Assembly: GCA_048268245.1 (NCBI GenBank)
Contig: JBLWVX010000011.1
Location: forward strand, 9,660 to 73,659
Direction: 5' to 3'
DNA length: 64,000 nt
From: Arcobacteraceae bacterium
GTDB taxonomy: Bacteria; Campylobacterota; Campylobacteria; Campylobacterales; Arcobacteraceae
How positions within the stretch are numbered: position 1 is the first letter of the stretch; each line of letters begins with the position of its first letter. The position numbers and the translations under genes were made by a program. Under the pieces are notes generated by a model, which had not been told where the DNA came from, did no database searches, and saw only the letters and a list, made by a program, of their open reading frames with translations. Shown here piece by piece: positions 30,118 to 55,602 of the stretch.

Positions 30118-31347
30118 TTATTCAATTGGTAAATCTAATATCTTCCAAGGTAAACCTTGAGTCATTAGTTCATCCATAAAAGGTTTAGCTTCAAACTCTT
30201 CTATATTGAATACACCTTTACCATCCCAAATACCTTTATAAAGCATTTTTGTTCCAATCATAGCAGGAACTCCAGTTGTATAAGATACTGCTTGTGCTCC
30301 TGTTTCTTTGAAACACTCTTGATGATCACATACATTGTAAATATATACTTTTTTCTTTTTCCCGTCCTTAATACCTTCAATAATACAACCAATATTTGTT
30401 TTACCAACAGTTCTAGGTCCAAGACTAGCTGGATCTGGTAATAGTGTAGTTAAAAACTCAATTGGAGTAATCTCAACACCTTTATGCATAATAGGCTCAA
30501 TACCAAGCATACCTACATTTTGTAAGCAGTTCATGTGTTGAATATATGAATCTCCAAATGTCATAAAGAATCTAATTCTTTTTAAACCTTTAATATTTTT
30601 TGATAAAGACTCTAACTCTTCATGATATAAAAGATATGAAGGTTTTACTCCAACTTCTGGATAATCATGTTCAACTCTAATTTCAAGGGGTTTTGTTTCA
30701 ACCCATTCTCCAACACCTTCATCATTTTTTTGCCAATATCTACCATTTGCAGATACTTCTCTTAAATTGATTTCTGGATTAAAGTTTGTAGCAAATGGGT
30801 ATCCATGGTCACCTGCATTACAATCCATAATATCAATATAGTTTATTTCATCAAATAAGTTTTGTTGCGCATATGCACAAAATACCCCTGTAACACCTGG
30901 GTCAAAACCAGAACCTAATAAAGCTTTAATTCCAGCTTTTTCAAATTGTTCATGTCTAGCCCATTGTTCTTTATACTCAAATTTAGCCTCATCAGGGTGC
31001 TCATAATTTGCAGTATCAACATAATCAACACCTGTTTGTGTACAAGCATCCATGATTGTCAAGTCTTGGTAAGGAAGTGCTACGTTTAGCACTACTTTTG
31101 GATTTACTTTTTTTATAAGCTCTACTAGCTCAGGAATATTATCAGCATCTACAGACGCAGTATCAATATCAACATCTTGATTTTTCTTAATATCAGCAGC
31201 AATAGCATCACACTTTGAAACTGTTCTTGATGCTAAAGTGATTTTTTCAAATGTATCGATATTCATAGCACACTTAACAGTAGCCACTCTACTAACTCCA
31301 CCTGCACCGATGATTAAAATACCTTTTTTATCCATTTTTTTCTCCAA
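30118..31347 (-). CDS. Carboxynorspermidine synthase (saccharopine dehydrogenase family)
   Basis: IIGAGGV, ALPYQDL, DTANYE, GFDPG, FATNFNPEINLRE, SYTTGVPA; upstream of nspC. Confidence 0.92.
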   Translation of the reverse strand: MEKKMDKKGILIIGAGGVSRVATVKCAMNIDTFEKITLASRTVSKCDAIAADIKKNQDVDIDTASVDADNIPELVELIKKVNPKVVLNVALPYQDLTIMDACTQTGVDYVDTANYEHPDEAKFEYKEQWARHEQFEKAGIKALLGSGFDPGVTGVFCAYAQQNLFDEINYIDIMDCNAGDHGYPFATNFNPEINLREVSANGRYWQKNDEGVGEWVETKPLEIRVEHDYPEVGVKPSYLLYHEELESLSKNIKGLKRIRFFMTFGDSYIQHMNCLQNVGMLGIEPIMHKGVEITPIEFLTTLLPDPASLGPRTVGKTNIGCIIEGIKDGKKKKVYIYNVCDHQECFKETGAQAVSYTTGVPAMIGTKMLYKGIWDGKGVFNIEEFEAKPFMDELMTQGLPWKILDLPIE

Positions 31348-31450
31348 ATTAATATGTATGATATTATAAACTTTTTTTAGTAAATAACTATTGAATTTTT
31401 AATTTGATTTTAATTTATTTGCTTTATACTATTTTTTAAGAAAATTACGA

Positions 31451-31456
31451 TATAGT
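31451..31456 (+). promoter_or_regulatory. Candidate -10 box of the native ssrA promoter
   Basis: TATAGT 16 nt upstream of the GGGG tmRNA 5' end, preceded by AT-rich periodic DNA. Confidence 0.4.
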
Positions 31457-31470
31457 TTCAAATATTTTTT

Positions 31471-31531
31471 ATGGGGATGATATGGCTTCGATTAGAGCAT
31501 CGAGGCTTGATTGCATGTCGGCCTGAGCATG
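31471..31531 (+). repeat. attL of island 1: 61-bp direct repeat equal to the displaced 5' fragment of ssrA
   Basis: ATGGGGATGATATGGCTTCGATTAGAGCATCGAGGCTTGATTGCATGTCGGCCTGAGCATG is identical to 44839-44899. Confidence 0.95.
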
Positions 31532-31612
31532 GTGGCTAAATGTTCAAACACATCTCAGACTAATGCCATCTTTAGGTATCTAGAGCTATTTTTTAATTTT
31601 AGCTTAAACCTC

Positions 31613-31635
31613 TCATTCACAAACTCATTCACATT
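31613..31635 (+). repeat. Putative integrase arm-type site (left)
   Basis: TCATTCACAAACTCATTCACATT (tandem TCATTCACA, 12-nt period), identical to 44751-44773. Confidence 0.75.
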
Positions 31636-31671
31636 TTACGTGTTTTAGTCCAATTATTTAGGCTAATTACT

Positions 31672-32904
31672 ATGAGTGTTAATAAACTACTAACTTCACT
31701 TAATATCAACAAATATGGAGTATATTATCTTAGGTTTAGAGTCTCAAATAAACTAAGTAGATTTTTCAAAAAAGAGTACATTTCAAAGTCTTTATTTACA
31801 AAAGAAAAGAAGACAGCAAAAATTAAAGCTATGGTTTACAGAAGTAAATATATAGAGCTACTTCAAATATCAGAATGGATTGACGATAAGACACTTCAAT
31901 TAAAAGTTAATGAATACATGAAGGATACTCTTAAAGTTGAATGTCCAAGTATTGAACAAGAACAACCTAAGCAAGATGAGTTTAGATTAAAAGATGCTAT
32001 TGCCTTATATAACAAATGGTACAAAAAACAAGGTGTAGCAGAGAAACAATATAAGATGATACAAAAAAGATTAAATGTGGCTATTTCATATTTTGGTGAA
32101 AATAGAATACTGAAAGAACTTAATACAGATGATATTGAAGAATACATTGATTTTTTAACTAAGTATCCTAACCCTAACAAAAAACCTTACAAAACAATGA
32201 GTTTCAAACAAATACTTAGGCTCAAAAATGTACCTCAACAAGACTATATCTCACCTAGTACAGTTATTAAATATATCAAAGCATTTCAACAGCTTGAAAA
32301 CTTCTTAGTTGATGATGGTAAACTTGACAGGAAAATAAGTAAAAGAGCTAAACTTCCAAATGTTAAAGATGCATCTAGAAGTCCGTTTACCGAAGATGAC
32401 TTAAAAACTCTCTATAATAAGTTTGATAAAATGGGTGATTTAGGTCTACTCTACTACACATTTGCTTATTCAGGTATGAGAACTTCAGAGTTTTGGAAAT
32501 CTAAAATAGGATATGAAGATGGCATATACTTTTTTGATTTATCCTATGAAGGGGTAGAGCTTAAAACTAATTCAAGTAAACGTAAAATACCTATTCATTC
32601 TAAACTAATTGAAAAAGGTATCTTATATAAATTAGAGGAACTTCAAGAATCATATAAACAGGGATATGTAAGTGAAATCTTTAACAGAAAACTAATCAAC
32701 CTTATCAGAGACTCTAAGAATAAAGTAATGTATAGTTTTAGGCATACTGTAGCAACTCATTTAAAGAGAGCTGATGTTGATATTGATAAAATCTCTGAGA
32801 TACTTGGACATCGCTATGAAAATACTTCTATGACTAAAACAGTTTATACTAATGGTTATTCTTTACTTCAACTAAAAGAAGCAATAGATAGATTAGATTT
32901 TTAG
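31672..32904 (+). CDS. Tyrosine integrase of island 1 (N-terminal DUF6538-like arm domain)
   Basis: GVYYLRFRV N-terminus; catalytic SGMRTSE, LKT, YSFRHT, LGH, VY; adjacent to attL. Confidence 0.9.
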   Translation: MSVNKLLTSLNINKYGVYYLRFRVSNKLSRFFKKEYISKSLFTKEKKTAKIKAMVYRSKYIELLQISEWIDDKTLQLKVNEYMKDTLKVECPSIEQEQPKQDEFRLKDAIALYNKWYKKQGVAEKQYKMIQKRLNVAISYFGENRILKELNTDDIEEYIDFLTKYPNPNKKPYKTMSFKQILRLKNVPQQDYISPSTVIKYIKAFQQLENFLVDDGKLDRKISKRAKLPNVKDASRSPFTEDDLKTLYNKFDKMGDLGLLYYTFAYSGMRTSEFWKSKIGYEDGIYFFDLSYEGVELKTNSSKRKIPIHSKLIEKGILYKLEELQESYKQGYVSEIFNRKLINLIRDSKNKVMYSFRHTVATHLKRADVDIDKISEILGHRYENTSMTKTVYTNGYSLLQLKEAIDRLDF

Positions 32905-32910
32905 TCTTGT

Positions 32911-35781
32911 CTATCTATCGTAAAACATTCCTACAAAACTAGTCACTTTATCAATGATATTAGTTATAGCTTTCTTTCTACCTAATGCTTTAGGTTTTTC
33001 CACTAAAGTATTAATAACTACATCAGGTTCAGGTTTCTTACCATCATAAATATATGTATCTACGACTGACTTAAAGGCTTCTTTATGTAAGTTCTCTTCT
33101 TTAACCATTACTTCAAATACTTTGGTTTTTTCTTCTTCCATAAAATTATCAAACTCTTCTTCAATCTCTTCAATATTAATGCTATCAAGTGTAGTATCTA
33201 TGAACTTCTCAATTAATTCTTTCTTACTTCTTAGCTTAGGGTTTGAGTTTATGATATTAATAATATTAGCTCTTTGTTTTTCTTTTTGTTCTGCTGTCGA
33301 GTTTGCATACTTAGCTAGAAGCTTTAGGATATAAGCTACATTAATCTCATCTTTATGAATCAACTCTAATTCAAAGTCAACGTCATCAAGTATAGAAACT
33401 TTCTCGCTTCCTTGTCCTGTTTTGTTAGCTTTGATTTTATCATAAAGGTCAAGGTACTTAGATTTATAGTCTTCAAACATTTGTTCACTCATGGACAAGT
33501 CAGACCATTTGAAGTCACTAAACCCATCAAGAATATTTTTTAGTCTTATTAGCTCTCTAAATGCTTTAATAAACTCTAATTGTTCTTCTTCATCGATGAT
33601 TGAATCAACACTGCTAACACTTGGAGCAATCTTAATTAATTCTTGAAATGCTTCATTGAACTTTTGTACATAATACTCATAAGGCTTCATTAAAATAATG
33701 TCTTTAGCTTCTTTGTTAGAGAACAATGCAATAGCATCATCTGTGTTTTTCTTCAAGTTTCTAAAACACACAATGTTACCTTGAGACTTTTGCTCATTTA
33801 GTATTCTATTAGTTCTACTATAGGCTTGTATCAGACCATGATACTTCAAGTTCTTATCAACATAAAGGGTATTAAGCCTTGGACTGTCAAAGCCTGTTAA
33901 GAACATGTTTACTACCAACAGAATGTCTATCTCTTTTTGCTTAACCTTCTTAGAGATGTCATTATAGTAGTTATAGAAGCTTTGAGAGTCTTTTGTGCTG
34001 AACTTAGTGTTAAACATAGAGTTATAGTCTTCAATGTACTCATCAAGCTTCTCACGACTGTGTTTATTAATATGAGACTCATCTATGTGTGCTCCATCAG
34101 ATTCATCAAGTTCATAGATTCCATTAGCATCTTTGTCATCTTCATTTGCACTGTATGAAAAGATAGTAGCTACTTTTAGCTTGTGCTCTTTGCTCTTGAA
34201 AGCTTCATAATACTTGTGAAGAACATCAACACTACTAACACACATCATAGCTGTGAACTCTCTAGAGTGAGTTTTCCTGTCATGGTTAGCTAAGATATAA
34301 TCAACAATCTTTCCAACCCTTTCTTTACTTTCTAACAGCTCTTTAACGTCTATGTTTTCAACTTCAATATCTACTTCAGTAGCACTGCCTTCTTTCTCTT
34401 TGTATCTTCCTATGTACTCAACTGAGAACTTCAACACATTATCATCACTAATAGCATCTGTTATCACATACTGATGAAGCTTTCCATCTTCTCCACCAAA
34501 CAGCTCTGCTGTAGTTCTCTTTCCATACTTATTGCCTACTGCATTCTCAGGAAAGATTGGAGTACCTGTAAAGCCTATTAGCTGAGCTTTTTCAAAGAAG
34601 CCTGTGATGTTTTTATGGGTTTCTCCAAACTGTGACCTATGGCACTCATCAAAGATGAAGACAACGTTTTTATCTCTTAAAGCTTCCATCTCTTTTAGGT
34701 AGTGAGGTTTACTAATAGCTGTATTTAGCTTTTGAATGGTAGTGATGATTAGGTTACTATCTTTTAGTACACCTTTTCTGTCTTTGTGTTTTCCTAAGAA
34801 CTGATTCACTAGAACTTTAGTATTGTCTGTTCCATCAACTGAACCATCAGAGAAGCTGTTGAACTCTTTTGAGGTTTGAAAGTCTAAGTCTTTTCTATCA
34901 ACAACAAAGACAACCTTATCAACTTCAGGAAGCTTCACTAGGATTTGAGATGCTTTGAATGATGTTAGAGTTTTACCTGAACCTGTTGTATGCCAAATGT
35001 AACCATTCTTTTGAGTGTTCTTAATCCTATCAACAATAGCTTCAACTGCATAGTATTGATAAGGTCTTAGAACCATTAGTATCTTTGGAACTTCAGCTAA
35101 AACAATATACTTACAAATCATCTTAGACACATGACATCGCTCTAGAAAGATTGAAGTGAACTCCTCAAGGTTTTTGATGTTAATGTTGTTCTTATCAGCC
35201 CAATAGAAAGTCTGCTTGAATGACTGCTTACGATTGTTCGCATAGTACTTAGTGTTAACACCATTAGAGATTACAAAAAGCTGTACATAGTGAAATAAAG
35301 CACTGTTAAACCCATATGAGTGTCTTTGGTATCTGTTGATTTGATTGAAGGCTTCCTTTAGTTCTAGACCTCTCCTTTTTAGCTCAATCTGAACTAGAGG
35401 TAATCCATTGATAAGGATTGTTACATCGTATCTGTTCTTGTACTTACCTTCTATAGTAACTTGTTGTGTAACTTGAAATAGATTCTGACACCAATGCTCT
35501 GAGTCTAAAAACTCAATATACTTTGTGTCTCCATTGTCTAAAGTTAAAGCATATTTGTCTCGAAGAAGTTTAGCCTTCTCAAAGACATTACCTTTGTTTA
35601 TATGGTTTAGGATTCTTTCAAACTCATCAGAGCTTAGACTTGTCTTGTTGTGTTTTTCAAGTTGTGACTTTAGGTTTGACAGAAGTGAAGCTTCGTCTTT
35701 GATGACCACTTTCTCATAGCCTTGAGAGCTTAACTGTTTTACTAAGTTGTCTTCTAGTACTGCTTCACTTTGTTTACTCAT
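32911..35781 (-). CDS. hsdR: Type I restriction endonuclease subunit R
   Basis: RYDVTILINGLPLVQIELK, QINRY, HTTGSGKT, DECHR, GFTGTP, FLTGFD, QAYSRTNR. Confidence 0.96.
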   Translation of the reverse strand: MSKQSEAVLEDNLVKQLSSQGYEKVVIKDEASLLSNLKSQLEKHNKTSLSSDEFERILNHINKGNVFEKAKLLRDKYALTLDNGDTKYIEFLDSEHWCQNLFQVTQQVTIEGKYKNRYDVTILINGLPLVQIELKRRGLELKEAFNQINRYQRHSYGFNSALFHYVQLFVISNGVNTKYYANNRKQSFKQTFYWADKNNINIKNLEEFTSIFLERCHVSKMICKYIVLAEVPKILMVLRPYQYYAVEAIVDRIKNTQKNGYIWHTTGSGKTLTSFKASQILVKLPEVDKVVFVVDRKDLDFQTSKEFNSFSDGSVDGTDNTKVLVNQFLGKHKDRKGVLKDSNLIITTIQKLNTAISKPHYLKEMEALRDKNVVFIFDECHRSQFGETHKNITGFFEKAQLIGFTGTPIFPENAVGNKYGKRTTAELFGGEDGKLHQYVITDAISDDNVLKFSVEYIGRYKEKEGSATEVDIEVENIDVKELLESKERVGKIVDYILANHDRKTHSREFTAMMCVSSVDVLHKYYEAFKSKEHKLKVATIFSYSANEDDKDANGIYELDESDGAHIDESHINKHSREKLDEYIEDYNSMFNTKFSTKDSQSFYNYYNDISKKVKQKEIDILLVVNMFLTGFDSPRLNTLYVDKNLKYHGLIQAYSRTNRILNEQKSQGNIVCFRNLKKNTDDAIALFSNKEAKDIILMKPYEYYVQKFNEAFQELIKIAPSVSSVDSIIDEEEQLEFIKAFRELIRLKNILDGFSDFKWSDLSMSEQMFEDYKSKYLDLYDKIKANKTGQGSEKVSILDDVDFELELIHKDEINVAYILKLLAKYANSTAEQKEKQRANIINIINSNPKLRSKKELIEKFIDTTLDSINIEEIEEEFDNFMEEEKTKVFEVMVKEENLHKEAFKSVVDTYIYDGKKPEPDVVINTLVEKPKALGRKKAITNIIDKVTSFVGMFYDR

Positions 35782-35797
35782 GGGTTTCCTTTAGTCT

Positions 35798-37018
35798 TTA
35801 CACAAACATCTGTTGTAGGAGTGCTTTCTTGAACTGTTTTGTTGCTTCTAGTTGTCTTGTAAACTTTTGTATTTTATCATCTAAGCTTTGGAAGAAAACA
35901 ACTATCTTCGATTGTTCTTCTAACTCAGGAATAGATATTGAATCACTTATTGCATAAGAGTTATTGATTTTCATATCATTTTTTGCTCCTTTGTGAACAA
36001 GTGGTCTAAAGTAACTATTCACATTGTCATCAAGCTGAAAATAGTAGTCAATAAATAAAGGATTCAAGTTTTCTTTTGGTCTATAAACTGCATAAAGAGT
36101 TGAAACAACTCCAGCTTTTTTCTTGTTAACCTTTACAATACCATAAGGATTAGCCTTCAATGGACTTTTAGTATAAACAATATCATTAACCTTTACTACA
36201 TGATAGTTATTTATTGACGCCCCTGCAAAAGAACGACCTTGAAACTCTATTTGATTAACAATCCCAAACTCTCCCGAAACTGATAATACATCATTTTTTG
36301 TATAGCTATCATCAATGTTTCTTTCTTTGTGTTCATACATTAGTTCATTTAGCTTTCTTTTTTTCCAAGAAGGAAACTCTCTTCCATCATCAGCTTTAAA
36401 CCTAATCTCTTGTGAGAAGATTTTCTGCATCACACCTTTTTTGTATTGCTTTAGTAGTTCTTCTTTTTTTGTTAGCTGTTCTATTTTAGTATCAACTGAA
36501 GTAAGGAATGAAGCTATCTTTTCTTGTTCTTGTTTTACAGGAATTGATATAGGAATACTTTTGATTATAGAACCACTTAAGTTTTTTTGTCCACCATCAT
36601 TACTAAGATTTCGGATGTTATCATACTGTCCTGCTAAATATTGATATAAGAATATATAACTTGTATCTTTTGGTTTGATAGATGCACACGCTTGATTTGT
36701 AGTTGCTTGTATTTTTAAAATACCTACTTTGCCTCTTGTCTTACCTTGTCCATACATAGCCATCAGTATAGTGTTTTTTTCAAATAGTTTGGCAGATGAG
36801 TTATTTAAGGCTTCTTCTGTTATGTATTCTTCTGCACCTTGGATATCTTTAAAATCAATCAAAGAAGTAGTAACCCAAGGTATAGTTCCATTCCAATAAG
36901 AGGATTTGCTTCTTGATGGGGTACCACCTGAACTAACAACAGCTATATTACCAATATTAGTATTTTCCCACTCTCTACTAAACTCTTTGAATCTTAACTT
37001 AGGTACATTACTCATCAT
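35798..37018 (-). CDS. hsdS: Type I R-M specificity subunit S
   Basis: PKLRF, two TRDs, conserved EQEKIASFL / EQSKIV helices, KKALLQQMFV. Confidence 0.95.
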   Translation of the reverse strand: MMSNVPKLRFKEFSREWENTNIGNIAVVSSGGTPSRSKSSYWNGTIPWVTTSLIDFKDIQGAEEYITEEALNNSSAKLFEKNTILMAMYGQGKTRGKVGILKIQATTNQACASIKPKDTSYIFLYQYLAGQYDNIRNLSNDGGQKNLSGSIIKSIPISIPVKQEQEKIASFLTSVDTKIEQLTKKEELLKQYKKGVMQKIFSQEIRFKADDGREFPSWKKRKLNELMYEHKERNIDDSYTKNDVLSVSGEFGIVNQIEFQGRSFAGASINNYHVVKVNDIVYTKSPLKANPYGIVKVNKKKAGVVSTLYAVYRPKENLNPLFIDYYFQLDDNVNSYFRPLVHKGAKNDMKINNSYAISDSISIPELEEQSKIVVFFQSLDDKIQKFTRQLEATKQFKKALLQQMFV

Positions 37019-37024
37019 CTACCT

Positions 37025-38587
37025 CTAAAATGGCTTAGCAATACCAAGCTCATCACAGAACTCAGCTATTGTTTCATCTGTAGTAACCATATCTGACTCT
37101 AAAGCTTTTAGCTTAGAACTAACTTCATCTAAGTCAACAGGTTCTTCTTCTTCAAAAGTGTCTACATACCTAGGGATATTTAAGTTATAGTCATTCTCTT
37201 TGATTTCATCCATTGAAGCTAGGTGTGAATACTTCTCTATCTCTTCTCTATTAGTGTAAGTCTGTACAATCTTAGAGACATTCTCATCAGTCATGTAGTT
37301 TTGGTTCTTAGCTTTCTCAAACTCATTTGAAGCATCCATAAACAAGACATTGTCACTATCTTCTCTGCACTTCTTAAACACTAAGATACAAGTAGGGATT
37401 GAAGTTCCATAGAAGATGTTAGCAGGAAGACCAATAACAGCGTCTAAGTAGTTTCTATCTTCAATCAGGTACTTTCTTATGTGTCCTTCTGCTGAACCTC
37501 TGAACAGTACTCCATGGGGTAAAACTATAGCCATAGTTCCATTATCATCTAAGTGATGTATCATATGCTGTACAAAAGCAAAGTCTGCTTTAGAAGAAGG
37601 TGCTAGTTTTCCATACTGAGAGAATCTGTCATCACTTAAGAACAAATCATTAGCTGACCATTTAGCTGAGAATGGAGGATTAGCAACGATTGCTTCAAAC
37701 CTGTCATCCAAGTGCTGAGGGTGTTCTAAAGTATCTTCATGCTTGATGTCAAACTTTCTGTAGTGCACATCATGCATAATCATGTTCATTCTTGCTAAGT
37801 TGTAAGTTGTAGCATTTAACTCTTGACCATAGAAGTTAGAGACATCAGATACCTCTTTAGCAACTCTAAGAAGTAGTGAACCTGAACCACATGTTGGGTC
37901 ATACACAGACTTTAGTTTTGTCTTACCAGTAGTTACTATCTTAGCTAAGACTTTAGATACTTGCTGAGGTGTATAAAACTCTCCTGCTTTCTTTCCTGCA
38001 CCTGCGGCGAACTGACCAATAAGATACTCATAAGCATCACCAAGGATGTCACTTTCGGTATCTTTTAGTTCAAAGTCTATGTTATCTAAGTGAGTAAGAA
38101 CTCTTACTATCAACTCATTTCTTTTTTCAACAGTTTTCCCAAGTTTCACAGAAGTTAGGTCAAGGTCATCAAACAGGTTTACGAAGTCATCTTCACTGTC
38201 ATGCCCCATTGTTGTTTGCTCTATGTTTCTTAGGATTGACGTTAGGTCTTCAAGGATGAAGTTGTTCTCTGTTCCACTTCCTCTTTTTGCTATTTCAGAA
38301 AATAGTTCATTAGGTCTTAAAAAGTATCCTAGTTTTTCTAAAGCTTCATCTTTAACTACTTCAATATACTCTTTTTCTTGTTCATGTCCTAAAACTTCTA
38401 GATATGAAATACCATCCTCTTTTAGTATTTGTGTATTTGCATAATCTTCAATCTTCTCAGATAAGTACTTGTAAAAAATAAATCCTAGTATGTAATCTCT
38501 AAACTCATCAGCATCCATCTTCCCTCTAAGGGTATCTGCAATGTTCCATAGTTGTCTTTCAAGTTGTTTTTTATGCTCGTCGCTCAA
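37025..38587 (-). CDS. hsdM: Type I R-M methyltransferase subunit M (m6A)
   Basis: LWNIAD, GEFYTP, YDPTCGSGSLL, NPPF, PHGVLFR, YNLNIPRYV. Confidence 0.96.
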   Translation of the reverse strand: MSDEHKKQLERQLWNIADTLRGKMDADEFRDYILGFIFYKYLSEKIEDYANTQILKEDGISYLEVLGHEQEKEYIEVVKDEALEKLGYFLRPNELFSEIAKRGSGTENNFILEDLTSILRNIEQTTMGHDSEDDFVNLFDDLDLTSVKLGKTVEKRNELIVRVLTHLDNIDFELKDTESDILGDAYEYLIGQFAAGAGKKAGEFYTPQQVSKVLAKIVTTGKTKLKSVYDPTCGSGSLLLRVAKEVSDVSNFYGQELNATTYNLARMNMIMHDVHYRKFDIKHEDTLEHPQHLDDRFEAIVANPPFSAKWSANDLFLSDDRFSQYGKLAPSSKADFAFVQHMIHHLDDNGTMAIVLPHGVLFRGSAEGHIRKYLIEDRNYLDAVIGLPANIFYGTSIPTCILVFKKCREDSDNVLFMDASNEFEKAKNQNYMTDENVSKIVQTYTNREEIEKYSHLASMDEIKENDYNLNIPRYVDTFEEEEPVDLDEVSSKLKALESDMVTTDETIAEFCDELGIAKPF

Positions 38588-38661
38588 TCTAAACCTTATA
38601 AATATTATCTGTATAAAGTTAAGATATTACCTAAAAAGTGCTAATTATAAAATAAAAATAA

Positions 38662-39819
38662 CTAACTTACATATTCATATAACGTTATATCTTGGTTACT
38701 AATAATTGAGCCATCTTTTATATCATCAACTCCTAAATGAATATAGTTTAAACTAGTATGATAACTTTTATGTCCCATAAATGTCATAATTTTATACCCA
38801 TTCCATTTACTTACACTCGCTAGTCTTGATGCAACTGTATGTCTCAGTCCATAAGGGACATAGTCTTTATGTATTTCTTTATCAGTCCAGTTTAGATGTT
38901 TTTTCATTATTGTCCATCTGTTGCCAACCATATCTTGTGTTAGTCTAGTGAACTTTAGAGTTTTGTATTTACTGTCACTTACAATGTCTTTAAGTTCAAT
39001 ATCGCAAGGAAGTTTCTTTTTATGTATGATAGTTAGAGAGTATTTAATATGCTCTTTAATAGCTTTTAGTACAATGCCTTCAAGTGGCAAAGTCCTGATG
39101 AGATTGTTTTTTGTTGAATTATATGAACCTCTAGATATTGTAACATGGTTATTATAGAAATCAAAGTCACCTAACTGAAGATTAAAATATTCTGCTGGTC
39201 TTAATCCAAGTGATATATTAATTATAAAATACTTTATCATTTCCCAATCAGTACTATTATTTGTTTCCTTGTATCTTTCAACTAATGTTTGGTACATTTG
39301 ATATTCTTCATATCTTGAAAAGCATATTTTTCTTTTCTTATATACAGGCATTCTCAAACCTTCAAATGGAAGTTTATTGTCTAAAATTAGTTTTTGTTTA
39401 TTTTCCAAATACTCAATTGATGTTTTTAATGTTGATATATAGTGATTTATTGTTTTATTTGCGTAATTCTTCTTTATAAGATACCTTTTAAACCTATCAA
39501 GGTCATCGACAGTTAATGTTGAGATAAGTCTACTTTCTCCGAAAAACATAGATATTTTTTCCCATCTCATTAGTGGATTTTTTTTATCCCTAAAATATAT
39601 CCATTTAGTTTCATAAATATATGATGTAGCATCTTTGAAGCTTAATCCTAAGTCTATTTCTTTGGGATTGAGGTACTCTATAGGGTTAATAATATGTTTC
39701 TTCCATTCATCTTCTTTTTCTAAAGCTTTTTTCTTTATTTTTGTAGTCCAAGTTTTTTGATAACGTATTTTATTAATTATAAAATCAGACTTCCAAAATC
39801 CATTTTGTTTCTTATACAT
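38662..39819 (-). CDS. Second tyrosine recombinase/phage-type integrase
   Basis: KTINHYISTL, GLRPAE, TKN, YGLRHT, MGH, NYIH catalytic pattern. Confidence 0.85.
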   Translation of the reverse strand: MYKKQNGFWKSDFIINKIRYQKTWTTKIKKKALEKEDEWKKHIINPIEYLNPKEIDLGLSFKDATSYIYETKWIYFRDKKNPLMRWEKISMFFGESRLISTLTVDDLDRFKRYLIKKNYANKTINHYISTLKTSIEYLENKQKLILDNKLPFEGLRMPVYKKRKICFSRYEEYQMYQTLVERYKETNNSTDWEMIKYFIINISLGLRPAEYFNLQLGDFDFYNNHVTISRGSYNSTKNNLIRTLPLEGIVLKAIKEHIKYSLTIIHKKKLPCDIELKDIVSDSKYKTLKFTRLTQDMVGNRWTIMKKHLNWTDKEIHKDYVPYGLRHTVASRLASVSKWNGYKIMTFMGHKSYHTSLNYIHLGVDDIKDGSIISNQDITLYEYVS

Positions 39820-40198
39820 TTTTCTCCTTTATATGAATAATATTGGAAAAAATAAAATAAAGTCAAAGTTTTGAAAGACTATGATTACCCAAAGCTTACG
39901 AATCTACTCGTTAAGTAAAAAAAATACCAAAAAAATCTGAAACCCCATAATGTAAACCACAGTAAAAGTTATCCCCCCATACCCCCTCTTAAGTTCACAG
40001 ATAAAGAACTTTAAGGGGAAACTTCAAGCCCAACTATTAAAACCTTTCTGTGAGAAGCCTACAAGCTCTTTTCCTTTTTTAGTCTAATGTTTATATCAAG
40101 AAATAAGCTCTAGGGTTTCTACATAACCTTACAGACTTCTATTAATCTATCAATCTATAACCTTCATTAAAACTAAAGTATTTTATAAAGTCTTATAC

Positions 40199-40227
40199 TT
40201 GACAAAGTATTTATAATTTGATAAAGT
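40199..40227 (+). promoter_or_regulatory. Sigma70 promoter of the resolvase gene, overlapping a probable res-site palindrome
   Basis: TTGACA-N17-TAAAGT with an extended TG; the -35 lies inside ATACTT-gaca-AAGTAT. Confidence 0.55.
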
Positions 40228-40268
40228 TTCAAGCATAATATACCTTAAGACTTGAAAGGAGATTTTAA

Positions 40269-40901
40269 ATGACAATAGGATACCTAAGAGTTTCAACTGA
40301 TAGACAAACTGTAGAGAACCAAAAGAGTGTTATTAGAGCTTACTGTAATGATAAGTTAAAGATAACTGTTGATGATTGGATTGAAGTTGTAATGAGTTCA
40401 AGAAAAGACTTAAGAGACAGAAAGATAGATGAACTTTTATCAATACTTTCAAAAGATGATAAAGTGATTGTGAGTGAACTATCAAGGTTAGGTAGGTCAA
40501 CTCAAGAGGTTCTACAGACTATAGAGAAGCTTATGAAGTTAGAGGTAGAACTACATATCATTAAACAAAACCTTACAGTTAATCCAAACAATAAGAATGA
40601 CTTTGTATCAAAAGCTATGATTACTTTATTTGGTCTATTTGCAGAGTTAGAGCGAGACTTAATCAGTCAAAGAACTAAAGAGGCTTTAACAGCTAGAAAA
40701 GAACAAGGAGTTACTTTAGGGAAGCCTAAAGGTACACTTCAAAAGTCAAAATATGATGAGCATAAAGATAGGATAGTTGAACTTAAGAGTTTAGGTTTAT
40801 CACTTAACAAGATTGTATCTAATCATTTAGAGCCAGTTATGGGAAAAGGTAACTGTTCTGTTCAAAGCTTATCTACTTACTTAAAGAAAAGAGGTCTGTA
40901 A
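40269..40901 (+). CDS. Serine recombinase (resolvase family)
   Basis: GYLRVST, SELSRLGRS, FAELERDLISQRTKE, LGKPKG. Confidence 0.93.
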   Translation: MTIGYLRVSTDRQTVENQKSVIRAYCNDKLKITVDDWIEVVMSSRKDLRDRKIDELLSILSKDDKVIVSELSRLGRSTQEVLQTIEKLMKLEVELHIIKQNLTVNPNNKNDFVSKAMITLFGLFAELERDLISQRTKEALTARKEQGVTLGKPKGTLQKSKYDEHKDRIVELKSLGLSLNKIVSNHLEPVMGKGNCSVQSLSTYLKKRGL

Positions 40902-41272
40902 GTCTATCTTACAGCTCTTCTTTTAATCCACTAATACTTTTTATTAACTTACAACTAAAAGGCTTTGTAGGGTTTCCTACAGACTGTCTATACCTCAAAA
41001 ATTACTTACTAAAACTTATTTATTACAATACCCATAAAATCGAGCCTTTTTGAAGATACCCCTCTCTAGGAAGAGTGTTTAACTTATCAACTTCTAAAAA
41101 GACCTTTATTAAGGCTTTCTCTTAAGAGGGTGCAGTATAGGAGAGAACTTAATTTAGTAATCTCAATAATTCCCCTTAATTAGGTAGTTATCTGAAGGGG
41201 GACCCGTATAGGAAGTAAAGAGTGCTTCCTCTAGGAGGAAAACTAAAATCAAAATCATAAAAGGAGGTTCAG

Positions 41273-41752
41273 ATGAACAACAATCAAACACAACTGAAAG
41301 ATGTTGTAATGTTTACTGATGGCTCTTGTTTAGATAATGGTAGAAATGGAACTGGAGGATACTGTGCATTACTACAGACACCTAACAAGAAACATCAAAA
41401 GATAATTAAAGGTAGTGAGTTAGATACTACGAATAATCGTATGGAGATAACAGCTATCATTGAAGGACTAAAGGCAATTAAAAAGCCTTCAAGAGTTACA
41501 GTCTATAGTGACTCTAATATAACTGTAAGAGCTATTAATGAATGGCTTGAGGGTTGGATAAGAAAGAACTTTAGAAAGGTTGCTAATGTAGACCTTTGGA
41601 AAGAGTATTTAGAGGTATCAGCTAAACACCAAATTAAGGCTATATGGGTTAAAGCTCATAGTGGTATTTATGAGAATGAGCTTGTAGATGATATAGCTAG
41701 AAGTGAAGCTATGAAGTTACATAGTAAGAGAGGTGTTCATTATGAGTATTAA
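41273..41752 (+). CDS. rnhA: Ribonuclease HI (element-borne copy)
   Basis: TDGSC, TTNNRME, YSDS, WLEGW, NVDLW, WVKAHSG, NELVD; all catalytic residues present; strong AGGAGG RBS. Confidence 0.92.
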   Translation: MNNNQTQLKDVVMFTDGSCLDNGRNGTGGYCALLQTPNKKHQKIIKGSELDTTNNRMEITAIIEGLKAIKKPSRVTVYSDSNITVRAINEWLEGWIRKNFRKVANVDLWKEYLEVSAKHQIKAIWVKAHSGIYENELVDDIARSEAMKLHSKRGVHYEY

Positions 41753-42530
41753 GATTGATAACTTTAAACCATTTGATGAGTATGCAAAAGAAACTTACTT
41801 AAGTATTCTACATAACAAACAGCTCAAAACTCCTCAAGCACATATTACAGATGAAGATAGAAATATTCTTGAAAGAAAATGTCATGCTTATACTAAAAAC
41901 AATTATGAAGTCTTTAGTGAGTACCTTGAAGATATAATTATTAGCTATGAAAATGAAGCAGAACTTGAAATACATAATACTACGCTCTTAATAAATAAGC
42001 ATACAGGAGAGATTTTATCTGAAGATTTTCATATCATAGACAAGGATTATATAAAACTAAAAAGAAAAGAGTTAAATAGTCTTAAATATTACAAAAAGAA
42101 GTTTACTAAATCAAAAACTAATAGTAAGGTTAAAGTTGAAAACTATAAGTCTAACCACAGATATACTAAGCTCTTCTCTAAGGTTAAACCATTATTTAAA
42201 AACCATAAATATCTTGGTATCTTTTATGACATTAGTAGAGAATTAAGCCCTTATGAAAACATAGTATCTCAACAAAACAATGATGGTAGATTTACTCCAT
42301 TAACAACTAAACAGATACAAGAGAGGTTTAATATTTCTCCTGATGATATGAAGAGATTTAAAGCTGAAGCAAAAAGACTTAAAGTTATTAGTGATGTAAA
42401 ACTAAAAGGAAGAACTTTAGGTATAAGGGTAAATCCAGTTTATGCTCTAAATGGGCAAGATATAAGTGAAAGCTTATATAAAGCATTTAAAGACTCTAAA
42501 GAGTTTATAGAGAACTTCAAAGAAAACTAA
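41733..42530 (+). CDS. Putative replication/maintenance protein (RepL-like C-terminal winged HTH); likely start ATG 41742
   Basis: INKHTGEI motif, YTKLF, HTH-like LTTKQIQERFNIS and RVNPVYALNG; overlaps the rnhA stop. Confidence 0.5.
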   Translation: MFIMSIKIDNFKPFDEYAKETYLSILHNKQLKTPQAHITDEDRNILERKCHAYTKNNYEVFSEYLEDIIISYENEAELEIHNTTLLINKHTGEILSEDFHIIDKDYIKLKRKELNSLKYYKKKFTKSKTNSKVKVENYKSNHRYTKLFSKVKPLFKNHKYLGIFYDISRELSPYENIVSQQNNDGRFTPLTTKQIQERFNISPDDMKRFKAEAKRLKVISDVKLKGRTLGIRVNPVYALNGQDISESLYKAFKDSKEFIENFKEN

Positions 42531-42873
42531 AGGTGTATATACGCACTATTATAAAATCACTAGAACACCTATAATATGGGCTTTATTAAAGATTTAAGTT
42601 AACAAATGCTTCTTATATATAGTGAAAAATCTATAGATAACTTATATATTTAATTAGTATAGAAATGAGTTTAGGCTAGAGCTATATTAGCATTAAAAGT
42701 AAAGCTATTACTAGACCTTAATTTCATTTCTAAACAATCATAATCTTAGAGTAATACTTAAGTAATAACTATAAATTGACTTTAAATAAATACATTACTC
42801 CGTGTCTTTGATACTACCTATTTCTCTTTATCTAGTCTAAAAATATCACTTTCAACAAATCTCATTACAAAGG

Positions 42874-43086
42874 CTATCGGGTTTTTAGTCCCTCTTCACT
42901 GCTTCCTCTAGGAGAAGAAACTACAAAATCTCCATTGGAAATATGTTCTATTGCCCTTATTATAGGCTTAAGTAGAAAGACTATCGGGTTTTTAGTCCCT
43001 ATTACACCCCCTCTAGGAGAAGACTTTAATTAAAACTACAAAATCTCCATCGGAAATATATCCTGTTGCCCTTATTGTAGGGTTAA
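42874..43086 (+). repeat. Two imperfect ~100-bp tandem direct repeats
   Basis: Units 42874-42971 and 42981-43086 share CTATCGGGTTTTTAGTCCCT, CCTCTAGGAGAAGA, AAACTACAAAATCTCCAT, GGAAATAT, TTGCCCTTATT. Confidence 0.9.
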
Positions 43087-43124
43087 TTTAAAAAAATAAA
43101 ACAAGTACATAAAAGGAGAAGTAA

Positions 43125-43187
43125 ATGCCTACAGTTAAAGAGGTACTAGAAGAGCAAGCAATAGAATATGAAAGAAGTGCGTTATAG
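43125..43187 (+). CDS. Possible 20-aa peptide or gene remnant
   Basis: MPTVKEVLEEQAIEYERSAL* with a well-spaced AGGAG RBS. Confidence 0.35.
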   Translation: MPTVKEVLEEQAIEYERSAL

Positions 43188-43198
43188 GGAGACCTAAA

Positions 43199-43844
43199 AT
43201 GAAAACTGAAGTTATGATGATAAGACAACTTGGAGATATTCAAGTAAGACAATCTAATCAGACTGAGATGTTTAATGCTACAGATTTGGTGAATGGGTTT
43301 AATGAGTATAGAAAGGCTATGGGATTACCTGAGAAGAGACTACAACACTATTGGGAAAATGACTCAACTAAAGAGTTCCTTGAAGCCCTAGAAATGGAGC
43401 TTAGTTTAAATAACCGGAAATCCGGTGAATTAAAAATCACTAGAAAAGGAAAGTATGGAGGGACTTATGTTGCTCCTGAAGTGTTCGTAGATATTGCTAT
43501 GTGGTTAAACCCTAGCTTCAAAGCTAAAGTAATGATTTGGGTGTCAGACAATCTGTTAGGTGTTAGGAATACTTCAGGTATCCAACAGCAAGTTATGAAC
43601 AGAGTTAGCTGAGAAGTTCAGTAATAGGACTACAAAATGGTTGATTATGAGGTTTAGTAAAAGAATTAATGAACATATCCTAGAGGAAGGTCAAGACTGG
43701 CAGAGTGCTACTACAGAACAACTAGAGCAAAGACTAGCACTACAAACTAAGATTATAAATGCGTGTGAGCTTTTACCTGATGGTATTAGTGAAGATGAGT
43801 TCTGTGAAATAGTGTTTAAAGTTAGACCTAAAGTTGTAGCTTAA
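43199..43844 (+). pseudogene. KilA-N domain protein split by a frameshift near 43599-43609
   Basis: FNATDL, STKEFLEAL, KGKYGGTYV, DIAMWLNPSFK (KilA-N). The adjacent frame is open from 43599 and continues AEKFSNRTTKWL...ATTEQLEQRLAL. Confidence 0.7.
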
Positions 43845-43855
43845 GGAGGACTACT

Positions 43856-43960
43856 ATGTCAATACATATATACAAGATGTTCTTAGCTAGAGGACACAAT
43901 AAAAAAACAGCTCAGAAGATGTATAAAAATTATATAGGAAAAATGAAGGAGGAAAAATAA
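43856..43960 (+). CDS. Small basic hypothetical protein (34 aa)
   Basis: MSIHIYKMFLARGHNKKTAQKMYKNYIGKMKEEK* with AAGGAGG RBS, packed between neighbours. Confidence 0.5.
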   Translation: MSIHIYKMFLARGHNKKTAQKMYKNYIGKMKEEK

Positions 43961-43961
43961 A

Positions 43962-44414
43962 ATGATTAAAAATGAAATATTAAAAGTAGATATTAGTGAG
44001 GAAGTTGTAGTAGAGGTTCAGCCACACAAAGAGCATGAGTGGCTGTTGTCAAGTAAAGATGTGGCTGAAAGTTATGGTTTGAGTAGAAGTGGTCTTACTA
44101 AAACTAAAAGTAGATATGCAGATGAACTTGAAGAAGGTAAACACTGGGTTGTGACAGATTGTCACACCCTTGGAGGAAAACAAAAAACAGTTTATTGGAC
44201 TAAAGAAGGCGTAGTAATGTTAGGGTTCTTCATTAAGACACCTACAGCTAAAAAGTTTAGAAGATGGGCTTCAAACTTTATCGTTGAGAAAAGTAAAGAA
44301 CCAAAAGCCCCTGTAGTACCTCAGACATACATAGAGGCACTTCAAGCTCACTTAGAGTCAGTTAGAGAGTCAGAGGAAGGTAATAGAGTTATTACTTTAC
44401 AAGCGCCTAAATGA
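43962..44414 (+). CDS. Phage antirepressor-like protein (Bro-N/ORF6N-like), probably 3'-truncated
   Basis: LSSKDVAESYG, ELEEGKHW, TLGGKQ, WTKEGVVMLGFFIKTPTAKKFRRWA, then VPQTYIEAL (antirepressor linker); stop-ridden sequence follows. Confidence 0.75.
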   Translation: MIKNEILKVDISEEVVVEVQPHKEHEWLLSSKDVAESYGLSRSGLTKTKSRYADELEEGKHWVVTDCHTLGGKQKTVYWTKEGVVMLGFFIKTPTAKKFRRWASNFIVEKSKEPKAPVVPQTYIEALQAHLESVRESEEGNRVITLQAPK

Positions 44415-44750
44415 TGACTTGATGGATAAAGAGAGCCTTATGTACCCTATGAATGGTTTGTAATGATATAAGTACCAAACTATAAAGACCCTGAGATAAG
44501 ACTAGAGAGTATATGGTTATTACTCTTGAGGGTGTTAGCTGAGATTAAGCCTATTGCAGATGAAGTTATAGCAAATGGTTTAATTAAGCCTGTAGGTAAG
44601 TAAGATATTAATAAAACATTTATGTTTAAGTTATGGTCATGTGGGTCATTTAGTGTACCTACATGATGACCACCTATTGAGAGAAGTGTTACTCAAGACA
44701 TATAGTTACAGTTAAAGAATCTTATCTCAACTATAAATTAAACTTTAAGG

Positions 44751-44773
44751 TCATTCACAAACTCATTCACATT
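44751..44773 (+). repeat. Putative integrase arm-type site (right)
   Basis: Identical 23-mer to 31613-31635, 65 nt inside attR. Confidence 0.75.
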
Positions 44774-44838
44774 ATACTAATTTTAAGAAATACTTGGATA
44801 GTATTTCGTTTTACTAAACACGCCGTAAATGAATATCG

Positions 44839-44899
44839 ATGGGGATGATATGGCTTCGATTAGAGCATCGAGGCTTGATTGCATGTCGGCCTGAGCATG
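44839..44899 (+). repeat. attR of island 1 (restores the ssrA 5' end)
   Basis: 61-bp identity with 31471-31531. Confidence 0.95.
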
Positions 44900-45238
44900 C
44901 CGTTACGCGGCTCATTTTTTTTAGACGCAAACAATACAAATTACGCTCCAGCTTACGCAAAAGCTGCGTAAGTTTAACAACTTATAACGAGCTCCCTTCG
45001 GGTTGAGCTTTTGGAGGTTCGCTCTGTAGATTCTATCTATGCAGGATTTAGCGGATTCACCCAGATAGATTACCAAAGAGAGATTGATCGAATTTCTTTG
45101 GGACATCCTTAGATCTTAGCTTTTTAGTTGCCTTGCAGGTTGAGCTGCTAGAAAGTGAAATTTTTCAACCTCACTAAGCATGTAGACGTCAAGAGTAGAT
45201 GTTTTAAGACTCCGGTTCGATCCCGGACATCTCCACCA
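44841..45238 (+). ncRNA. ssrA: tmRNA
   Basis: 5' GGGGATG pairs with 3' CATCTCC-ACCA (G3:U alanine determinant); T-arm CCGGTTCGATCCCGG; internal tag ORF. Confidence 0.97.
44927..44971 (+). other. tmRNA proteolysis tag reading frame (A)ANNTNYAPAYAKAA*
   Basis: Resume codon GCA after TAGAC; ends in AA-TAA, similar to Campylobacterota tags. Confidence 0.9.
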
Positions 45239-45352
45239 TTACACAATCTAACACAATCCATAAAACTATTCAAAAACCCCAATTTATCGAGATGTAATCA
45301 TAAAAATAGTCCGATATGAACTTACTTAAAATATTGTAATCCAACTCTTTTC

Positions 45353-45409
45353 GGGGTATATTTAGGGGTACTCTGATAAAATCTTATATACATATTTTTA
45401 ATATACCCC
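45353..45409. repeat. Arm-type sites of the P4-like integrase
   Basis: GGGGTATA (45353), GGGGTA (45365) and inverted TATACCCC (45402). Confidence 0.65.
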
Positions 45410-45423
45410 CTAAAGGATTCTAA

Positions 45424-46641
45424 ATGGCTAAAGTTATAGTACCTCTGTCAAGTACACAAATTAAAAGTGCAAAACCAAAAGAAAAAGATTATAAACTTTT
45501 TGATGGTGGTGGTTTATTTTTATTAATAGCTAAAACTGGTGGTAAAAGATGGAGAATGAAATACAGATTTAATGGAAAAGAAAAACTTATTGCATTAGGT
45601 GTTTATCCTCAAATTTCATTAAAAGTTGCTAGGGAATTAAGAGAGCAATATAAATCTATGATAGCACAAGGAATTGATCCAAACCAAGAAAAAAAACAAA
45701 AAAAAGAAGAGACTAAAAGAACTGAGGAAAAAAAAGAAAATACTTTCTTTAAAATTTCACAAGAATGGCATAAAAATTATGCAACTGAGGTATCAGAGAA
45801 TTATCATTATAAACTTGAAAGAGCATTAGAAAACTATATATATCCTTTCATAAAAAACAAAGCTATAGAAGATATAACAAGACTAGATATTATAGAAATA
45901 CTTCAAGATTTAAAGAATAAAGGTATTATAGACACAGCAAATAGAGTTTATATGCTTTTAAATAAAATATATAAATACGCGGTAACATTGGAGTATGTTC
46001 CTCATAACATAATAGCAGATATTGAGCAAAAAAATATATTAGGTAAAATAGAGAAAAAACATTATCCAACTTTTACAAAAGATGAAGACATAAAAGGATT
46101 ACTTCTATCAATTGATGAATATGAAGGTGATTATTCAACAAAAATGGCTTTAAAAATACTTCCTTATATATTTGTAAGAAGTTACAATATAAGACATGCT
46201 AAGTGGTCTGAAATAAATTTTGATACAAAAGAATGGATTATACCAGCGTCGAAAATGAAAACTAAAAAAGAATTTATATTACCTTTACCTAAAAATGTAA
46301 TAGAATTACTTTATGAAGTAAATAAGATTACAGGACAAGAAGAGTACATTTTTCCAAGTTATAGACAAAGAAACAGACCAATGAGTGACAATACTTTATT
46401 ATCAGCTATAAGAAGGATGGGATATACAAAAGAAGAATTTGTACCTCACAGTTTTAGAGCAATGTTTTCAACAATAGCATATGAAAATATGGAAGAACAT
46501 GGATATAGTAGTGAAGTTATAGAATCACTACTTGCTCATGTAGAAAAAAATAAAGTGAAAGAAGCTTACAATAGAGCATCTTATAAAAAATCAATGAGAG
46601 GATTAATCGAGTGGTATGCTAATTATTTAAAAAATAAGTAG
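45424..46641 (+). CDS. P4-like tyrosine integrase
   Basis: KDYKLFDGGGLFL...GVYPQISLKVARE arm domain; VRSYN, MK, HSFRAMFST, LAH, AYNR. Confidence 0.95.
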   Translation: MAKVIVPLSSTQIKSAKPKEKDYKLFDGGGLFLLIAKTGGKRWRMKYRFNGKEKLIALGVYPQISLKVARELREQYKSMIAQGIDPNQEKKQKKEETKRTEEKKENTFFKISQEWHKNYATEVSENYHYKLERALENYIYPFIKNKAIEDITRLDIIEILQDLKNKGIIDTANRVYMLLNKIYKYAVTLEYVPHNIIADIEQKNILGKIEKKHYPTFTKDEDIKGLLLSIDEYEGDYSTKMALKILPYIFVRSYNIRHAKWSEINFDTKEWIIPASKMKTKKEFILPLPKNVIELLYEVNKITGQEEYIFPSYRQRNRPMSDNTLLSAIRRMGYTKEEFVPHSFRAMFSTIAYENMEEHGYSSEVIESLLAHVEKNKVKEAYNRASYKKSMRGLIEWYANYLKNK

Positions 46642-46756
46642 CCACAAATTTATCTTTTTAAATTTTTTCATTCCAAATAATCTATAAATTACTAATTATT
46701 TATATTTTATAAATATATACAATACATTATAAAAACGATATTTATCAATATACTAT

Positions 46757-46826
46757 ATTCACTATAGGGAATTTATTTAATAATCATATTCATGTAATAT
46801 TTTATTATTAAATCACTATGGGGAAT
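46757..46826. promoter_or_regulatory. Two candidate operator boxes upstream of the XRE-dndFGH operon
   Basis: ATTCACTATAGGGAAT (near-palindrome, 46757-46772) and TCACTATGGGGAAT (46813-46826), 13/14 identical. Confidence 0.55.
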
Positions 46827-46830
46827 AATT

Positions 46831-47076: not shown

Positions 47077-47086
47077 AGAGAGTAAA

Positions 47087-55600: not shown

Positions 55601-55602
55601 TT

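Follow-up and report, generated by a model that had tools for sequence, protein, structure and literature searches.

An integrative island that appears to replace the 5' end and promoter of the tmRNA gene in an Arcobacteraceae bacterium

The gene for transfer-messenger RNA (tmRNA), ssrA, ranks among the sites that integrating elements use most in bacteria, and the textbook rationale is that an incoming element replaces the 3' end of the gene, which keeps its own promoter. Every tmRNA sublocation surveyed by Williams in 2002/2003 reportedly replaces a 3' part in this way. Integration into the 5'-distal part of a transfer RNA (tRNA) gene is said to have been described by Zhao and Williams in 2002 (J Bacteriol 184:859), reportedly with details of how the promoter is supplied; the outward promoter Pcirc of ICEclc, in work by Sentchilo and colleagues from 2003, reportedly drives intB13 after circularisation; and the CP4So prophage is said to sit at the 3' end of ssrA. 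The locus described here is an integrative island at the opposite, 5' end of ssrA in an Arcobacteraceae bacterium (draft assembly GCA_048268245.1), and it lies within a stretch of 64,000 nucleotides (nt) of contig JBLWVX010000011.1 (positions 9,660-73,659, forward strand), which was analysed as a whole, is called the window below and supplies all coordinates given without a contig name.

The configuration filter of Islander accepts a 5' fragment lying upstream of a tRNA or tmRNA gene (tDNA) (Hudson, Lau & Williams 2015, PMC4383910), and the text on Phage_Finder describes only 3' replacement for tRNA and tmRNA genes (PMC1635311). For archaeal elements, integration into the 5' part of tDNA is called 'considerably less frequent' (Krupovic et al. 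2019, PMC6563490). Among elements in protein-coding genes, those with dusA-specific integrases place the island in the 5' end of the gene, which is restored (Farrugia 2015, PMC4482086), and SpyCI in mutL encodes a promoter for the downstream genes (PMC3430984). Excision of the CP4So prophage at Shewanella ssrA is reported to matter for host physiology (PMC5148205). No island in the 5' end of a tmRNA gene or in a purD leader was found described in the literature searched, where the term 5' could not be queried, and the TIGER/Islander resource, with about 1.75 million islands (PMC12424338), may already list such islands. Targeting of the 5' end of tDNA is known but rare, and the tmRNA case set out here is a variant on that known arrangement.

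The region is best explained as a site-specific integrative island of about 13.4 kb, non-conjugative by gene content and carrying a type I restriction-modification (R-M) system as cargo, and to this explanation as a whole a probability of roughly 0.8 is assigned. A repeat search of the window finds a 61-nt direct repeat, 100% identical in its two copies at 31471-31531 and 44839-44899 (both +), which lie 13368 nt apart and consist of 2 leader nt followed by ssrA nt 1-59. The right copy, in the attR position, is the start of an intact, functional tmRNA gene at 44841-45238 (+; tag ANNTNYAPAYAKAA), called by ARAGORN and by Rfam RF00023 (132.1 bits, gathering score 47, model positions 1-374) and the only tmRNA above the cut-off in the whole genome. 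The left copy, in the attL position, is identified by alignment as a displaced ssrA 5' fragment, and the 5' segment of ssrA occurs at just these two places in the genome. Repeat search, ARAGORN and Rfam agree with the preliminary description, which had given the duplication as 2 leader nt plus the first 59 nt of ssrA. The fragment (31473-31531), the integrase gene (int, 31672-32904) and the tmRNA gene, all on the forward strand, present the configuration that Islander recognises, and an uninterrupted site exists in related genomes. The arrangement is not that of a classical 3'-end tmRNA island, with its 3' identity block and retained native promoter, the identity block here spanning nt -2 to 59.

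Set beside the 5'-distal integrations in tRNA genes, the locus is alike in that recombination involves the 5' part of an RNA gene and the element must bring upstream signals; it differs in that the target is a tmRNA gene, with a whole small clade at the site and a sister clade in an mRNA leader. As in the tDNA islands of Islander and TIGER (PMC4383910), a tyrosine integrase accompanies an intact target and a displaced fragment in direct orientation, and the gene is restored; unlike the usual case there, in which the 3' part is replaced and the promoter left untouched, it is the 5' 59 nt and the promoter that appear to be replaced. The dusA and SpyCI elements share the insertion at the 5' end of a gene, with the 5' end restored (dusA) or a promoter supplied (SpyCI), whereas their targets are protein-coding and SpyCI silences mutL as a switch, the RNA gene here being rebuilt intact. 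CP4So is likewise a mobile element at ssrA, but one without promoter exchange.

The state of the site before integration is preserved in relatives. The left flank, outside the island, carries a carboxynorspermidine-synthase-like (CANSDH) gene (30118-31347, -; Pfam Sacchrp_dh_NADP and Sacchrp_dh_C), which matches NCBIfam NF043000 over its full length with 395.8 bits, under the strict cut-off of 800; the gene beyond it is nspC, above its own NCBIfam cut-off, and the left repeat copy lies 124 nt from the start of the CANSDH-like gene. A left-flank query of 732 nt, made up of the 5' part of this gene, the intergenic region and the 61-nt copy, found a contiguous end-to-end match in six of the 40 other genomes of the order that were searched, three of them from the same genus (G002, 93%; G003, 92%; G001, 92%) and three more distant in identity (G022, 82%; G023, 77%; G014, 75%). 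An ARAGORN scan of the corresponding loci in 18 relatives places an intact tmRNA gene next to the CANSDH gene in 11, which, together with the six contiguous matches, is the island-free arrangement that the preliminary description had led one to expect; in four of the seven remaining loci (G017, G021, G019, G007) the ssrA 5' match lies 2.4-3.2 kb further on, beyond the scanned locus. In alignments, window positions 31340-31470 are nearly identical to the region upstream of ssrA in G001-G003, to which the 130 nt upstream of 44839 are unrelated. Since the left flank is the G001-G003 intergenic region, it is the left copy that still has the native promoter, and the DNA preceding the rebuilt ssrA belongs to the island. 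The DNA upstream of 44841 is hence not the ancestral ssrA promoter region, and the earlier picture of a truncated copy on the chromosomal side, with the full gene rebuilt 13.4 kb away behind island DNA, agrees with the relatives.

The predicted native ssrA promoter (31435-31456, +) consists of TTTAAG at 31435-31440 and a -10 element TATAGT at 31451-31456, and a near-identical promoter stands before intact ssrA in G001-G003. A -10 hexamer in the same register is found in other members of the family, and in the native ssrA promoters of 16 of them it is followed by TTC or TCG and lies 13-21 nt before the mature end. In the window this promoter now faces the 59-nt stub, a 140-nt spacer with arm-type repeats and then int, with no terminator predicted between stub and integrase gene; the statement that the native ssrA promoter points into the integrase, made before relatives were aligned, is upheld by these alignments. 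The fold of the stub and spacer upstream of int is no more stable than that of shuffled sequences.

At the other end of the island, an outward promoter-like module (44781-44804, +) precedes the rebuilt gene. The order there is arm-type repeats, TTTTAAGAAA (44781-44790), 8 nt, a -10 element TAGTAT (44799-44804), TTCG, a leader of about 30 nt and the first mature nucleotide, G44841, the -10 element lying about 36 nt before mature ssrA. The module is conserved in the three right ends available (3/3), being kept in the related islands L046 and G050 although the target of the latter differs. It shares the features of native ssrA promoters, with a leader some 20 nt longer (about 30 nt in the island, about 10 nt in the native gene), and of 2000 mononucleotide shuffles 10 score as high in likeness to the native promoter, against 39 of 2000 for the corresponding purD pair. 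In the predicted fold of the ssrA precursor the acceptor stem is kept and the leader is unpaired, as an RNase P substrate would need. The sole RNA contig (X15) lies within ssrA, at 44854-45060.

Of 183 other genomes of the family, 23 match the island stretch at unrelated places, and the eight loci inspected all carry a TTTTAAGAA-N-(G)ATAnnAT pattern, followed in two of them (L098 and L099) by a stretch resembling a ribosome-binding site and an ATG. As an observation in its own right, TTTTAAGAA-N8-10-(G)ATAnnAT stands upstream of unrelated DNA in L098, L099 and L103-L105, with the TTTAAG element 10-11 nt from the -10 hexamer; upstream elements of the TTTAAG type are known from Campylobacter promoters. 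An earlier notion, that the island carries a captured ssrA promoter, was dropped on finding the same motif at these unrelated places. The likeness between island and native promoters follows from a shared family pattern, and the island module is probably a consensus-type housekeeping promoter of the family, its activity being suggested by conservation and by the fit to the recurring pattern.

Both ends of the island also carry tandem arm-type repeats, found by repeat search. Two copies of CTCATTCACA in a 12-nt register lie 39 nt upstream of int (31612-31633, +), and GTCATTCACA and CTCATTCACA lie 68 nt upstream of the right repeat copy (44750-44771, +). The repeats upstream of int are conserved in all six related islands that were aligned (6/6) and those of the right end in 3/3 right ends (window, L046 and G050); it is from position and conservation only that the arm motif, as a putative integrase-binding element, draws its weight.

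The integrase itself is a tyrosine recombinase of 410 amino acids with a DUF6538 N-terminal domain (Pfam PF20172, 26.7 bits). The match to the catalytic domain PF00589 (31.5 bits, cut-off 27.1) covers residues 350-394 alone, and PHROG 1, an integrase family, matches residues 14-408 at 4.2e-31. Residues R270, K298, R357, H380 and Y392 are invariant in 18 homologues and align to GLRVSE, LRHSFAT, LLGHS and IYT of XerA (PDB 4a8e, E 0.0011), and the first His of the HxxR motif is Tyr354 in the island protein. A search of protein clusters at E<=1e-30 returned 33 representatives, twelve of them at least 64% identical; the cluster members are mostly metagenomic, one cluster being named Aliarcobacter butzleri. 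Among 184 species genomes of the family, 14 hold a homologue at E<=1e-20, of which only that of G050 is close (70%), and 400 further genomes of the order gave no close homologue at E<=1e-60. A search of genome contigs for related loci with the integrase alignment gave no match.

Seven members of the clade, at least 53% identical in their integrases, were compared at the DNA level, and three of them lie at ssrA and three at the purD leader, the seventh (L049) having no upstream DNA, with int cut by the contig start and no Rfam match downstream. The ssrA cases are the window and two metagenome contigs, L045 (integrase 92% identical) and L046 (70%). L045 shows the CANSDH gene and the promoter, followed by ssrA nt 1-59, in which the host allele differs, and by the same island DNA (GTGGCTAAATG...), and L046, a contig of 245 kb, shows the 5' stub, int and, 8.2 kb downstream, the full tmRNA gene. 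The junction after ssrA nt 59 is identical in position in all three, and in both islands of which two ends are seen the mature 5' end of ssrA lies 1-2 nt inside the repeat.

The purD leader sites (Rfam RF01069, gathering score 41 bits) are those of G050 (integrase 70% identical), L047 (64%) and L048 (53%). The motif upstream of int scores 46.2 bits in G050 (L022:1282-1389), 42.2 bits in L047 (positions 5-114) and 36.1 bits, below the gathering score, in L048 (positions 45-162). The G050 island is bounded by an imperfect repeat (about 111-119 nt, copies 15.6 kb apart), the second copy of which (L043:18462-18580) stands directly before purD, and the left flank of the island is the purD upstream region of the island-free G049 and G071. 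The purD elements repeat the order of the ssrA islands: target, arm repeats, int. In these islands the complete riboswitch-like motif and the native purD promoter precede int, and in G050, the sole purD case with its far end seen, purD follows a predicted island-borne promoter and a shortened leader. A search for a core shared between the ssrA and purD attachment sites found none, the score being reached by 381 and 1014 of 2000 shuffles.

tRNA genes are the sites of more distant homologues, 29-35% identical. The classical arrangement, with a repeat of the tRNA 3' part, is seen in G195 (tRNA-Ser) and G116; almost all of a tRNA-Thr is repeated in G127; and in G130 and G131 (tRNA-Val) and G159 (tRNA-Pro) the whole tRNA is duplicated, antiparallel to int. 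A search of G171 found no convincing repeat within 20 kb. The islands with whole-tRNA duplicates (L050 in G130, L052 in G131, L053 in G159) are 5.4-6.6 kb long and have integrases 29-31% identical with the same Pfam architecture, and their duplicates, 76 and 86 nt of tRNA-Val-GAC at 100% and 91 nt of tRNA-Pro at 92%, look full-length in both copies. Since these distant homologues lie at tRNA genes, the habit of using the 5' end of an RNA is confined to a narrow clade and does not extend to all DUF6538 integrases. The suggestion that the integrase represents a specificity class distinct from 3'-end integrases is thereby substantiated by a small clade of its own, three times at ssrA nt 1-59 and three times at the purD leader, with relatives of 29-35% identity at tRNA genes.

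On promoter activity, the position of the crossover, present mobility and the role of the outward promoter in the circle, we infer the following. The substrates of the DUF6538-type integrase would be nt 1-59 of the host's ssrA and an attP that reads, in order: arm repeats, outward consensus-type promoter, leader (about 30 nt), duplicate of ssrA nt 1-59, spacer (about 80 nt), arm repeats, int. Integration would move the native ssrA promoter and the 59-nt stub in front of int, and would join the island's promoter, leader and 5' cassette to the remainder of ssrA, leaving the single tmRNA gene whole. Transcription of the rebuilt gene would then start in island DNA, and its leader, foreign to the host, would be removed by RNase P. 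After excision, int would lie on the circle behind the 59-nt stub and be transcribed from the outward promoter, whose first job is probably the expression of int on entry, restoration of ssrA transcription being the second. The geometry is that reported for ICEclc, where an outward promoter distal to int comes to lie upstream of it on excision, as the predicted module at 44781-44804 would; unlike Pcirc, which in the integrated state reportedly reads into the chromosome without restoring a gene, the module here would also drive the target gene. That int would stand behind a promoter and an ssrA stub in both states offers a possible reason for the conservation of the module in purD-type islands.

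The crossover probably takes place near ssrA nt 55-59, where the repeat has its 3' edge, since the island must carry the part of the gene that it displaces. Identity between L045 and the window is 65% in the host flank, 81% over ssrA nt 1-59, 89% in the island spacer and 89% in int, values that would fit a host-derived stub in attL, the difference being modest.

Several observations weigh against this account. The argument from segment identities is weak (11 of 59 against 16 of 142 positions mismatched), and the two mismatches in the purD repeat of G050 do not locate the crossover, G049 and G071 carrying one allele pair each. No attB or attP joint between the repeat copies was found in contigs from four sequencing runs, which were compared as contigs throughout (the best share of the probe in any run being 0.62) and cannot show rare excision forms or transcription starts. 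No excisionase was identified among the island's open reading frames (ORFs) with Pfam, PHROGs or NCBIfam. Within the window the arm motif, with one mismatch allowed, occurs 6 times against 4.9 expected from shuffles. A generic sigma-70 scan marks neither the native nor the island promoter, its counts not exceeding those in shuffles; a terminator scan likewise gave no more matches than shuffles did, and generic scans of either kind, E. coli-type for promoters, are uninformative for this AT-rich lineage. Finally, the island genes at 40269-44414 all point towards ssrA with no terminator predicted, and read-through from them could replace or add to the promoter.

The last point can be taken further, to a reading that keeps the island unchanged but lets most ssrA transcription come by read-through from the resolvase-to-Bro-N genes, the module at 44781-44804 being just an integrase-binding or int-regulatory region and no promoter of ssrA. 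All six ORFs of the stretch lie on the forward strand, no terminator is predicted between 44414 and ssrA, and the module overlaps the arm repeats. Against this, TTTTAAGAAA-N-TAnnnT occurs with the same spacing upstream of unrelated DNA in several other genomes, with the ribosome-binding-site-like stretch and ATG after it in the two loci mentioned (L098, L099), and resembles native ssrA promoters; an RNA of an essential type that relied on read-through from accessory genes would, besides, be fragile. Supply of ssrA mainly by read-through is accordingly regarded as unlikely, if conceivable.

An equally doubtful variant moves the crossover to the other, 5' edge of the repeat, to ssrA +1 or the position just upstream, so that the functional ssrA would be native throughout and the island's own 59-nt copy would end up in attL, serving recognition or homology only; the exchange of promoters would still hold. 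The 29-35% identical integrases of G195 and G116, at tRNA 3' parts, do have the identity block between the crossover and int, as this variant would have it. The repeat, however, begins no more than 1-2 nt from the mature 5' end in two diverged islands and stops at precisely nt 59 in three, which is what a gene-restoring cassette predicts, and the L045 stub carries an allele of its host lineage, 81% like that of the window as against 89% for the adjoining island DNA.

It had also been proposed that integration and excision act as a regulatory switch on the tmRNA level and on ribosome rescue. The geometry would permit it, the two states putting ssrA behind different promoters and behind leaders of the two lengths given above, but the proposal finds no support: no excision joint appeared in the contigs of the four runs, the island promoter fits the native-type pattern, which suggests restoration over regulation, and sister elements do likewise at an unrelated target, purD. 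A switch therefore seems improbable, and neutral restoration of the gene, with an outward promoter serving int after circularisation, is the simpler reading. That the 61-nt repeat falsely joined two loci in a draft genome of 57 contigs is very unlikely, as the junction of ssrA nt 59, island and int recurs in the independent metagenome contigs L045 and L046, the latter with both island ends on one contig, and as the genome holds a single tmRNA gene and one further 5' copy, around an island with a matching integrase and arm repeats at both ends.

Between int and the rebuilt ssrA, three adjacent full-length ORFs on the reverse strand make up a predicted complete type I R-M system by Pfam: the restriction subunit HsdR (32911-35781, -; HSDR_N, SWI2_SNF2, T1R_D3-like, EcoR124_C), the specificity subunit HsdS (35798-37018, -; Methylase_S in two stretches) and the methylase HsdM (37025-38587, -; N6_Mtase at 1.9e-115, HsdM_N). 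They are followed by a second tyrosine recombinase (38662-39819, -; PF00589, 50.7 bits; PHROG 1) and, on the forward strand, by a serine recombinase or DNA invertase (40269-40901, +; Pfam Resolvase, 4e-34; PHROG 125), an RNase H (41273-41752, +; PF00075, 8.3e-37), an ORF of 265 amino acids (41733-42530, +) with a weak match to DUF5390 (Pfam, 24.6 bits, just below the cut-off of 25) and none in PHROGs or NCBIfam, a KilA-N domain protein (43199-43612, +; PF04383, 4.9e-19), an ORF of 67 amino acids (43641-43844, +) that matches no family in Pfam, PHROGs or NCBIfam and is the sole small ORF to offer itself as a putative excisionase, and a Bro-N or anti-repressor-like protein (43962-44414, +; PF02498, 26.7 bits; PHROG anti-repressor families). 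No conjugation, capsid or replication genes were recognised between the repeats with Pfam, PHROGs or NCBIfam.

The second tyrosine recombinase adjoins hsdM, and candidate roles for it and the serine invertase are phase variation of the R-M system, a nested element or resolution; the G050 island has an ORF of invertase size and other genes in place of the second tyrosine recombinase. The stretch 42866-43098 holds a pair of 66-nt direct repeats separated by 115 nt as well as a 31-nt repeat in three copies, and a palindromic 20-mer, TGCTTCCTCTAGGAGGAAAA, occurs at 41223-41242 and 42900-42919, upstream of the RNase H and KilA-N genes; these repeats may be operator or origin-like sites of the island.

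Related islands are also present in sequencing-run contigs of two mollusc/oyster metagenomes. A high-depth, isolate-like run (X3) has contigs 90-99% identical to the window over 31484-32935 (int), 39712-42131 (resolvase to RNase H) and 43584-45500, with right-end identity up to 44840. The R-M genes are left uncovered in this run, suggesting that its island is related but carries other cargo. A contig of run X2 extends just 30 nt past 44839 and was not counted as bridging. In viral contigs, a search for the attL junction pattern gave no match, and a search with a 20-mer from the arm and promoter region gave one, inside an unrelated coding region without an RNA family, which was taken as chance.

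The other end of ssrA is likewise occupied. An integrase gene of the P4 type (Pfam Arm-DNA-bind_3, 45424-46641) starts 186 nt after ssrA, and contig C26 holds a displaced fragment of the ssrA 3' end (32131-32154, -), directly followed by DNA that shares 93% identity with what lies downstream of ssrA in G003. This second island, inside which the window's contig ends (window 45239-64000), has the classical arrangement of a 3'-end tmRNA island, and from the P4-type integrase and the C26 fragment it follows that ssrA has an island on either side. In G002, too, ssrA is followed by an integrase region, 77% similar.

For a site at which the element is expected to leave the promoter in place, the opposite solution thus appears to exist, in which the element would bring promoter, leader and the first 59 nt, and the site is used by three independent elements. 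Such islands would escape annotation pipelines that seek only 3' fragments. With a defined attP/attB pair, and with two unrelated RNA targets within one small integrase clade, the system would be useful for studying the evolution of site choice by integrases, and for software that predicts islands or searches for new integrases. The host, which would run on a foreign promoter and leader, would offer a natural test of how much those of ssrA (or of purD) matter. It may tentatively be proposed, as a rather doubtful extension of these results, that structured RNA elements, by their 5' ends, have become the special targets of a small clade of Arcobacteraceae integrases, each element carrying a portable cassette of promoter, leader and 5' part, with the resident int transcribed from the control region of the target. 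If so, int would be driven by the strong ssrA promoter or by a complete purD riboswitch-like leader, and its expression, and possibly excision, would be wired to the translation or purine status of the host. The sole tmRNA of this bacterium would then be a chimera, its 5' 55-59 nt and promoter the property of one island and its 3' end derived from a second.

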